Assembly: GCF_054482595.1 (NCBI RefSeq)
Contig: NZ_JBTHVH010000006.1
Source of the DNA: a plasmid
DNA length: 46,161 nt
Reading direction: 5' to 3' (one strand)
Made by a program: the position numbers
In this document: positions 40,201-43,200 of the stretch, one piece after another
How the letters are laid out: each line of letters begins with the position of its first letter
Numbering within the stretch: position 1 is the stretch's first letter

Positions 40201-43200
40201 TTTTTTCAGGAGTTTGAAGCGATTAACAGTGTAATATTGCCTTTGGTGATTTTTGATTTGATAGACCGAAAGCCGATTATGGTTATCGGCTTCGGTGAAG
40301 TATGTGGAGTTGATTCACTTGTTGATTCTGGTATAGAAGTTGTTTCTTTAGACGGTTTAAGCGATCTGCTACTGGTTGAAAAACTGACGCCATTATTTAA
40401 CTAAACCTCTGGATAACTATCTTTTCAGTTTTCCAGTAAGATTTTTTCTATATCTGAAAGCACTATTTTTTCAATGCTTTCTATATAGTAATGCTCATTA
40501 AAACCTGTCATTTCTGTAAATTTTAGCTCTGCATCATCTTTCGAATAAGCAATAACAACTCTGAAATCATTTTCCCACAAATCCCACCTGTATTTGTCTT
40601 TTATACGAACCCTGTACAATCCTTTTTGGATAGTGCCATCTTTTTTCTCTTCCTGTACTTTTTTTAATTTTTCATTTTGCACCTGTTGTTCAAGCCATGA
40701 TTTATTCATAAATCCCCCACGGTTAACGTCTTTAGGCTCGGTTTTTACTTAACGAAATCTTCCGGTTTTACACCTGTTTTTACCTTCATATACTTGCCCT
40801 CCCCCCTTAGCTTCGGCTGAAGTTCGGTAAAGTACCATCCGGCAACGGTAATAATGCCTAAAAATACAAAAATAGCAGGCTTCAGAACATCAATAGCTGA
40901 TACAGCGCATAACTCAATATTGAGATTAGTACAAGTTCCCTCATCAGGTGCATAGAACCCCCATAAGCCTATACCTATAAGGAACATCCCCAATATCGGT
41001 TGGATGTATAACAAGTAGATATTAATAAGAGTTTTAATATATCTGAATATGAACATTTTTCTTTCCTTAGGTTTCTTTCTATTTTGGATTTCCAATTCTT
41101 AACCAATGTGATGGTTCGACAATCCATTCTCCGCAGTCATAGGCAACGGCCTTATTATGCCTGTTAGCGAACCATACTAACCAGGCTAATAATCGCTGAT
41201 TGCCGCTGTATTTGGTTTATCTCTAACCATCACAACATATCTCTTTTTCTTAGCCATAACGCTACCCTAATTTTGCAGATTCAAGCAGCCAGTGGTTTTT
41301 CAGGTTCTCGTCCAGGTTATCGAATGCGGCCAGCGCTGCCTTTAGAACGGTTGTCTTGCTCTGGCCTGTTCTCTGCGCCTCCGCTTCCAGGATCTCCTCA
41401 AAGTACGCTGGCAGTCTGAAGTTCATCAACTTTGGTTTACCCGCTACAGGCGCTCTGGTAGCGCCGGAGATAAAACGCGCGGTTTCTGCGTTTGTTGCTG
41501 GTTGCTGAGATTCATCGATGTTCGGGCGGTTTAGTTTTAAAGCCATGAAAATTTCCCCTTGTACGGTATGCATTAATTGTAAATATCATAGTATCTTTAT
41601 GGTGTATTTACAATGTAAAGATTTCGATGAATATTGTTGATATTTCTATAAAATGCCAATTTCCTGTGCCACAAGTTCAATCTGTGCTTTCGCTGTTGAA
41701 AGGCTCGATGCCCGGCTAACGTCATGTACCCCTGCCCCTTCATTACAGGCGCTTTCATACACATCCAGCTCGGATATCCGGGTTTTCAGAGGTTGAATCC
41801 AGATGTTGTCCGAACGCAGTAATTTATCCAGATCAATGGCCGCTTTTCTGTGGCGGGGTTTCGCTGAGTTGATTCTGGTGAACAGCACCCACGGTTCCAG
41901 AGCTGCGTTAGCTTTCTGAGCGGTGCGGATTTTCTCTGTAACACTGGTCAGTGTTTCGCTTTCGAAATCAGAGGACGGCTTAACCAGTGTCACCACGATA
42001 TCTGATACTGTCAGGGCGCTACGGAACTCCTGGCTGTCGTGGCCGGGGCAATCGACAATGAGAACTTCACACAGCTTACTAAGGCGCTTAATTTCGTTGC
42101 TGACGTTTCCGTAAGCTGCGTGAACCGGGATAGTGAGTAAGCCGTTATCTGTCCGCTTTTCGTTCCAGCTCAACAGATCGTGGTTTTTATCTGTCTTCAG
42201 GATAATTACCGACTTACCTTTGTTGACCAGCATTGAGCCTGTGTTAGCCACGTAGGTGCTTTTGCCTACCCCACCTTTATCTGATACGACAAGCAAGATT
42301 TTACCCATTTCAGAATCCCTCTCTTTATGTTGTAAAGCTCATGTAAAGATATGAATGTCTTTACATGGTGTGTTTTTCGTAAAGATACTTTTGTCTTTAC
42401 AGTGTCTTTATAATGCAATGGCTTTACCATGTAAAGCACAAATAAAGATATATTTATCTTTATGGTGTCTTTACATGGTAAATGTTGCTGTGTCTTTATG
42501 TGCGCTTTATGGTGTAAATCTTGGTGTGTCTTTACATCATCTTTATGTTGTAAATTTTTAGTGTGACGTTGTCACTATAGGGCTGGGGTCTGTTTGCTGG
42601 TTCTTTTTGAGTGTGCCTTCCCTGAACCAACTGAAATGGGTACTGTATGGGTGTGTCTGGTTAACTCAAAATGAACTGGTTCCCTATAATGACTCAAACA
42701 GTACCGAAAGGCTTTGTCAGAGCTTACTTACGCGCATCCACGACTGAACAGGATGCAACACGCGCCCTGGACACGATAAATACCTTCGCCATCGAGCGCG
42801 GCCTGAGCATCTGTAACTACTACATTGAAAATGAATCAGGTTCTAAGCTTGAACGCCCTGAGTTGTTCCGGCTCCTGAAAGATTGTCAGCAAAACGATAT
42901 CTTGCTGGTAGAGGATGTGGACAGGCTTTCACGCCTGGTAGGGGAGGACTGGAACACACTGAAGAAAATGATCCGGCAGAAAGATATCCGGGTTGTGGCC
43001 GTCAACGTTCCGACAACCTGGCTCGCATCGGGTCACAATGATTTTGACAGCCGAATGTTTTCGGCCATAAACGATATGTTGCTGGATATGCTGGCCGCCG
43101 TCGCCAGGCGAGACTATGAACAGCGCCGGGAACGGCAGCAGCAGGGGATCGCCAGGGCGAAAAGGGAAGGGAAGTATAAAGGCCGCCAGGTTAATCAGTC

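Follow-up and report, generated by a model that had tools for sequence, protein, structure and literature searches.

The window analysed here, 46,161 bp in full (contig NZ_JBTHVH010000006.1 of assembly GCF_054482595.1), is a complete IncX3-type resistance plasmid, and we describe the partition (par) locus of its backbone, which lies beside a pir-type replication gene and is 100% identical to the locus of many IncX3 records, e.g., NZ_MW296100.1. The locus contains an operon on the minus strand, in which parA comes first and a gene for a 94-aa protein, assigned below to the ribbon-helix-helix (RHH) class, follows. It also contains short repeats in regions of 26–35% G+C. The core half-site of these repeats is CTTTAY (reverse complement RTAAAG), and four half-sites recur together as a 42-bp composite unit, CTTTAY-N3-RTAAAG-N5-RTAAAG-N10-CTTTAY. 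The open reading frames (ORFs) and repeat features on which the analysis turns are the following.

41646–42308, minus strand (runs 42308 to 41646): parA, ORF, 220 aa
41262–41546, minus strand (runs 41546 to 41262): RHH gene, ORF, 94 aa
42323–42555, no strand assigned: main repeat array, between parA and a divergent serine recombinase gene; presumed centromere
41579–41620, minus strand: gap unit, 42 bp, four half-sites (two perfect, two ATTTAC), two mismatches to the unit
41585–41613, minus strand: promoter-like element in the gap unit, with −35 TTGTAA (41613..41608), a 17-nt spacer and −10 TATGAT (41590..41585)
37150–37191, plus strand: third unit, 42 bp, perfect (0 mismatches), about 5 kb from the par locus
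36530–37045, minus strand: DnaJ-domain gene, 171 aa (Pfam DnaJ, E 7e-11), first gene of a leftward gene string

A search of the whole plasmid for the 42-bp unit, allowing up to three mismatches, returns nine matches, as compared with none in all 100 shuffles. All nine are confined to three places: seven in the array (42323–42555), one in the gap unit and one at 37150–37191. In addition, the window has 22 copies of the word TCTTTAYR where 6.6 would be expected, and the array and gap clusters account for 13 of them. A position weight matrix (PWM) scan with the single half-site gave 56 matches against about 28 expected and was dropped as non-specific, so composite patterns were used instead. Local half-site counts were tested against 2,000 dinucleotide shuffles of the same AT-rich stretch.

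The main array consists of seven overlapping 42-bp units in both orientations. It holds 16 perfect CTTTAY half-sites and three to four ATTTAC variants, again in both orientations (about 20 half-sites in total), and their spacing is mostly 9, 11 and 16 bp, which gives a 36-bp super-period. In this stretch of 31% G+C, the shuffles contain 0.45 perfect half-sites on average and none of the 2,000 reaches 16, which bears out the dense, two-way motif cluster that the original prediction, made from the sequence alone, had placed upstream of parA at 42320–42560. Between the array and the parA ATG are 14 nt. At the third site, which that prediction had missed, there are four half-sites against 0.13 expected locally, and none of the 2,000 shuffles reaches four.

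The original prediction further had the operon flanked on both sides by repeats, with a smaller cluster (41575–41640) just downstream of the RHH gene. The small cluster exists, at 41579–41620. However, because the operon is on the minus strand, this position falls after parA and upstream of the RHH gene, and the PWM scan finds no half-site match from 40775 to 41592, i.e., none downstream of the RHH gene, so that the operon has flanking repeats on one side only.

ParA carries a deviant Walker A motif (SDKGGVGKST, residues 9–18) and matches the Pfam families CbiA, AAA_31 and MipZ. Against the NCBIfam model ParA_partition, it scores 94.8 bits (E 4.8e-27), under the 180-bit equivalog cut-off. Its closest solved relative is ParF of TP228 (4dzz, 206 aa), aligned over residues 3–217 with an E of 1.2e-7. 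With 220 aa, it is a small Walker-type ParA without an N-terminal DNA-binding domain, as in type Ib systems, and the repeat array that such systems have upstream of the operon is present, as sequence, at 42323–42555.

The start of the RHH gene was fixed at 41546 by alignment with homologues, all of which begin MALKL. The family comprises 74 homologues, named "CopG family" in their sources. When 33 members were compared with Pfam at E ≤ 1, RHH_1 was matched by 24 (best 1.6e-4), TraY by 11 and NikA-like by four, and all three are RHH families; the window protein itself has weak matches, to a RelB-like family (E 0.0016) and to TraY (E 0.17). Neither the window protein nor, at E ≤ 1, a single one of the 33 relatives matches Pfam ParG (PF09274), and the same Pfam search recognised the true ParG of the locus L017. 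The AlphaFold model (pLDDT 73) has a disordered tail at residues 1–36, then an extended segment, and helices at 47–60, 64–76 and 80–92. The predicted β-strand spans K39–L45 (KLMNFRL), and the N-terminal tail carries a conserved ETARFI motif, which includes R24. The sequence search of solved structures gave only a spurious methyltransferase match. Identity with the published IncX3 regulator VirBR was considered and discarded, as VirBR is an 85-aa protein of non-RHH fold that acts at PactX.

The gap unit lies on the operon strand, upstream of the RHH gene, within the 99 bp that separate the parA stop from the RHH gene start. In particular, the −35-like hexamer of its promoter-like element overlaps the tight palindrome of the unit, while the −10-like hexamer falls within the N10 spacer, immediately before the last half-site, and ends 38 nt before the ATG of the RHH gene. 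A consensus scan of the operon strand finds promoter-like pairs only in the gap. Furthermore, the best −35/−10 pair of the gap ends 33–39 nt before the ATG of the small gene in seven of ten lineages despite very different sequences, and IncX5, which stood outside this ten-lineage scan, has TATAGT at the equivalent N10 position. No terminator-like structure was found in the gap. The gap unit is presumed to be the operator of an internal RHH-gene promoter, an auxiliary partition site, or both. The original prediction had suggested separate operator and centromere functions for the two clusters. This remains plausible, in that the small cluster overlaps a conserved promoter-like element, but the geometry assumed for the second cluster was wrong.

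The third unit stands 105 bp upstream of the start of the DnaJ-domain gene. An extended −10 element for this gene, TGgTATAAT (37118..37110, minus strand), would put the unit at about −47 to −88. IncX5 retains the unit although every spacer differs. We presume that the RHH protein has an additional binding site here in IncX3 and IncX5, with the DnaJ-domain gene as a candidate regulated target; of all parts of the reading, the role of the third unit is the least certain. The IncX4 and IncF-typed copies of the DnaJ-domain gene have neither a CTTTAY-type nor an IncX4-type word upstream. On its plus strand, the unit has an embedded TTGTAA-16-TATATT pair (37157–37184) that faces a 52-aa ORF (37299–37457, plus strand), whose IncX5 equivalent (locus L011, 1437–1592) is annotated as a hypothetical protein. 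In an IncX4 plasmid (L010, NZ_MK875281.1), a third small cluster of the IncX4-type word, ggtatgtcacacagacatacctatgtgtatgtc, occurs at 9694–9725, between dqlB and IS26 and upstream of that plasmid's par array by about 1.3 kb. This cluster may be the IncX4 counterpart of an extra binding site.

Comparison with relatives shows that the half-sites are retained while the sequence between them changes. The footprint was computed with relatives 91%, 82% and 71% identical, and for the third site with IncX3 against IncX5. Half-site columns are 94% conserved in the gap, 87% in the array, there across four relatives, and 92% at the third site, against 69%, 56% and 55% for the respective spacers (Fisher p = 2e-5, 9e-14 and 1e-3 for the three places). 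The layout of array, parA, short gap with the same word, and small gene is kept in ten lineages, carried by IncX3, IncX1, IncX5, IncX4, IncI2, IncR-typed and IncFII-typed plasmids and by metagenomic contigs. In all ten, the gap between parA and the small gene is 73–116 bp long, untranslated and provided with its own ribosome-binding site. Of 72,556 plasmid records, about 2,000 have a ParA with 60% identity or more to that of the window, including IncX3 carriers of blaNDM and IncI2 carriers of mcr-1. The locus L007, which combines parMR and parAB, was set aside as a different lineage, with a ParA 28% identical and overlapping parA and parB genes.

Each gap bears the same word as the upstream array of its own plasmid, and where the word shifts, it shifts in both places together. 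In IncX4, for example, where the ParA relative is 37% identical, the layout is held in common and the repeat word is different. The word in turn tracks three β-strand residues of the RHH protein that align with the base-contacting residues Q9, N11 and R13 of Arc, as follows.

L/V-N-R, with CTTTAY: IncX3, IncX1, IncX5, L001, L002, L016 and IncI2
S-T-R, with (T)ATTTAC: L005 and L006
P-N-R, with (T)ATTTAC: L015, and also L014, whose homologue is not adjacent to a parA
L-S-R, with GACATAC / GTACATC: IncX4

Arrays are kept in relatives that lack the recombinase (IncI2, IncX4, L005 and L006). Conversely, one IncX1-type plasmid with parFG and a hybrid RHH gene has no repeat unit, cluster or palindrome; there, a region of ACTC boxes, parF, parG and a new 5′ end stand in place of everything from the array through parA and the gap to the small gene's 5′ end. 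The repeats, as judged from these sequences, follow the cassette and not its neighbours. Overall, a ParF-like ParA, an RHH-family partner and repeats that co-vary with the gene pair lend good, if indirect, support to the initial proposal that this is a partition operon whose centromere-like repeats are bound by its RHH protein.

The hybrid small gene lies directly downstream of true parF-parG in L017 (1860–2165) and L018 (NC_010257.1, 2731–3042), and it occurs in IncX1-type plasmids, in 67 plasmid records. At the C-terminus it has an RHH domain that shares about 80% identity with the window protein, but its N-terminus (MDKNVIDALK) is unrelated. We considered that the RHH domain might serve as a general regulator where parFG has replaced parA and rejected this, as the plasmid examined in full holds no CTTTAY unit. 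Because its plasmid has no CTTTAY sites, the hybrid gene looks like a relic left by an exchange of par cassettes whose junction fell within it.

From the architecture of the repeats, their non-random occurrence, their conservation and their co-variation with the protein, we infer binding, repression, promoter activity and centromere function. Specifically, we put at about 60% the probability that the locus is a type Ib partition cassette in which the array acts as the centromere, the gap unit as the promoter and operator of an autoregulated RHH gene, and the third unit as an extra target. In this mechanism, RHH dimers would bind the 6-bp CTTTAY half-sites cooperatively through the β-strand, with L40, N42 and R44 as the likely base contacts, by analogy with Q9, N11 and R13 of Arc. 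The roughly 20 half-sites of the array would assemble the partition complex and so constitute the centromere. Since it comes within 14 nt of the parA start codon, the array is probably also the parA operator, and array-bound RHH protein would probably repress parA. By analogy with the ParG tail, the disordered tail, with its ETARFI motif, would contact nucleoid-bound ParA; it would stimulate the ATPase of ParA, and this stimulation would move and space the plasmid copies as in other ParA systems. At the gap unit, an operator over an internal promoter would allow the RHH protein to regulate its own synthesis apart from that of parA and thereby set the ratio of ParB to ParA; the unit could also be a minor partition site. 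The third unit, upstream of the DnaJ-domain gene, would be one more target in IncX3 and IncX5.

A wider version of this scheme, in which the RHH protein would run a plasmid-wide circuit made up of a conserved self-repressed internal promoter, control of a DnaJ-headed backbone operon in IncX3 and IncX5, and partition proteins that cross-react between plasmids, is speculative, and we hold it to be rather unlikely as a whole.

Several observations weigh against the cassette reading. As to the protein, the window RHH protein reaches no curated RHH threshold and has no significant Pfam match, a profile search of solved structures with it found nothing, and its Foldseek neighbours, almost all of them RHH proteins (CopG, Arc, ParD, ParG), have E values of at least 0.7. 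The co-variation of repeat word and β-strand comes from few, phylogenetically nested lineages and is best called suggestive. As to the array, the consensus scan finds no canonical operon-strand parA promoter (at least 9/12) in the IncX3 array, the best pair scoring 7.5/12; with no convincing sigma-70 promoter there, the case for a parA operator is one of position. In L005, L006 and IncX4, strong promoter-like pairs occur, as sequence matches, about 76 nt upstream of the parA ATG. In the gap, four relaxed half-sites stand against 0.98 expected, and 20 of the 2,000 local shuffles reach four (p about 0.01), so that the cluster is convincing because of its exact 42-bp spacing and its conservation in other plasmids and not by count alone; moreover, the promoter-like element of the gap is weak or displaced in IncI2, L001 and L015. 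IncX1 and IncX4 lack the third unit, whose embedded TTGTAA-16-TATATT pair faces away from the DnaJ-domain gene.

The main rival explanation takes the gap unit as a second centromere, like parC2 of pB171 par2, that is neither promoter nor operator, with both genes expressed from a single transcript that starts upstream of parA. We consider this unlikely but worth taking seriously: pB171 par2 does have two ParB-binding regions around its genes, four contiguous repeats suffice for an active partition site in pSM19035, and the gap promoter is a consensus match only. Against it stand the −10-like hexamer, held 33–39 nt from the ATG and just 5′ of the last half-site in seven of ten lineages, and the 73–116-bp untranslated gap that has a ribosome-binding site of its own in all ten; in the distantly related L007, the parA and parB genes overlap. 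The conserved −35/−10-like pair is unexplained if the gap unit is a roadblock or attenuator, at which bound RHH protein halts RNA polymerase coming from the parA promoter and lowers expression of the RHH gene relative to parA. Such a device would suit a unit that lies between the two genes and is oriented along the operon strand, and ParA systems need a controlled ratio of the two proteins. Nevertheless, the gap contains no terminator-like structure that we could find, and RHH dimers are not, to our knowledge, efficient roadblocks; we regard this explanation as improbable, and more so than a second centromere.

The remaining explanations concern the repeats as a whole. That another protein binds them, be it the serine recombinase (as a res site), a plasmid H-NS homologue or Rep (as iterons), is suggested by the array's position next to the recombinase gene and its AT-rich composition (31% G+C). 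The arrays, however, persist where the recombinase is missing and are absent where the same recombinase adjoins parFG, a separate palindrome (TGTGAC..GTCACA, 42563–42577) goes with the recombinase, the Rep iterons are a different, 22-bp repeat (38220–38360), and the word changes with the RHH β-strand; we consider this explanation very unlikely. For regions of 26–35% G+C, one might suppose that an AT-rich word has clustered by chance in intergenic DNA of like composition, but the probability of this is close to nil: shuffles of local composition never reach the counts of the array or the third site, the 42-bp unit occurs nine times against none in 100 shuffles, and the half-sites are conserved across lineages while the spacers diverge. 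Both explanations are effectively excluded by the sequence comparisons. The best reading of the gap unit is that of an operator over an internal promoter of the RHH gene, in a cassette whose centromere would be the main array.

The other features in and around the locus are the following.

42671–43351, plus strand: serine recombinase gene, ORF, divergent from parA
38398–39411: pir-type replication gene
43440–44660, minus strand: transposase gene, 406 aa, immediately right of the recombinase gene
45394–46116, minus strand: transposase gene, 240 aa, right of the recombinase gene

The two transposase genes mark the start of the accessory resistance region; from their translations, read by eye, we take the first to be of the ISL3 family and the second to be IS26. 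Between the array and the recombinase start codon lies a palindrome, tgtgacgttgtcaca (about 42563–42577), together with a flanking block within 42560–42660. Palindrome and block are kept in L001–L003, and also in L017, where the same recombinase adjoins parFG; the palindrome probably serves the serine recombinase as its res site and is not one of the partition sites. Just upstream of the pir-type replication gene, at 38220–38360, are about six direct repeats of the 22-bp word aaggtgagaggatttttcacgt, which are probably replication iterons and unrelated to the CTTTAY half-site. An Rfam search gave no match at the par locus. Elsewhere in the window, RF02891 (AgrB antisense RNA) is matched above the gathering score at 9874–9961 on the plus strand; in the DinQ-like type I toxin system that PMC12317039 reports in IncX3 plasmids, AgrB is the antitoxin.

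In the searchable literature, with much subscription literature outside the search, studies of IncX3 plasmids call the locus no more than "parA" or "partitioning", and we came upon no account of its centromere or of a protein that binds it. Plasmids of the IncX3 (blaNDM-5), IncX4 and IncI2 (mcr-1) groups are major vehicles of resistance to last-line antibiotics. Work on stability, incompatibility and plasmid curing gains concrete targets in the half-site, the 42-bp unit and the three candidate places, and an autoregulated internal promoter for the binding protein would be a testable circuit conserved across the family. If the wider scheme is true, partition proteins could cross-react through the CTTTAY word common to IncX1, IncX3, IncX5 and IncI2, which would lead to partition-based incompatibility or cross-regulation between co-resident resistance plasmids.

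Among known systems, parFGH of TP228 has the closest solved ATPase, and its ParF likewise works with a small RHH partner that has a disordered N-terminal tail. A repeat array also lies directly upstream of the ATPase gene in TP228 (the parH centromere and the OF operator), and a divergent serine recombinase, the same module as here, adjoins parFG in L017 and L018. In contrast, the partner described here is not of the ParG family, and ParG recognises ACTC tetramer boxes, not CTTTAY. In addition, parF and parG of L017 and L018 are separated by only about 50 bp, and the TP228 literature examined describes no site for binding between the two genes.

The par2 system of pB171, also of type Ib, has a small ParA, a small ParB and two repeat clusters, parC1 and parC2, for one gene pair. 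Ringgaard et al. (2007) reportedly describe the repeats as short and bound by ParB. The likeness to par2 lies in the layout, which differs in that parC2 lies downstream of parB, while the second site described here lies between the genes. In view of parC1 and parC2, and of the multiple parS sites of pSM19035, several sites around a ParA/RHH pair are not unusual, contrary to what had first been supposed; what is particular here is the intercistronic site conserved across this ParA family.

The closest system in logic, as far as sequence can tell, is δ/ω of the Streptococcus pyogenes plasmid pSM19035, in which δ is the ParA, ω is the RHH ParB and the parS sites lie at the promoters of δ, ω and copS. 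pSM19035 has an RHH ParB with a flexible N-terminal tail that doubles as a repressor, short direct and inverted repeats, and several separate sites at the promoters of different genes, including one outside par (copS). The IncX3 locus shares the short repeats in both orientations and the several separate sites, and its RHH protein, with a predicted tail and a presumed repressor role, and its promoter-like overlaps would be counterparts of the rest. Moreover, the minimum active site of pSM19035 is four contiguous repeats, and both minor sites of the IncX3 plasmid have exactly four half-sites. The two systems differ in the details. The RHH protein has no sequence relation to ω, to judge from the profile search of solved structures and from Pfam scans that returned no Omega family; the pSM19035 repeats are contiguous 7-bp WATCACW heptads, while those here are 6-bp CTTTAY half-sites spaced 9, 11 and 16 bp apart; the host there is Gram-positive; and parA and the RHH gene of the IncX3 plasmid stay adjacent on one strand. 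Judged by its sequence, the locus would be a type Ib partition system with an RHH centromere-binding repressor, an already known kind with a locally distinctive site architecture, and it would represent a proteobacterial counterpart to the logic of pSM19035 rather than a new principle.

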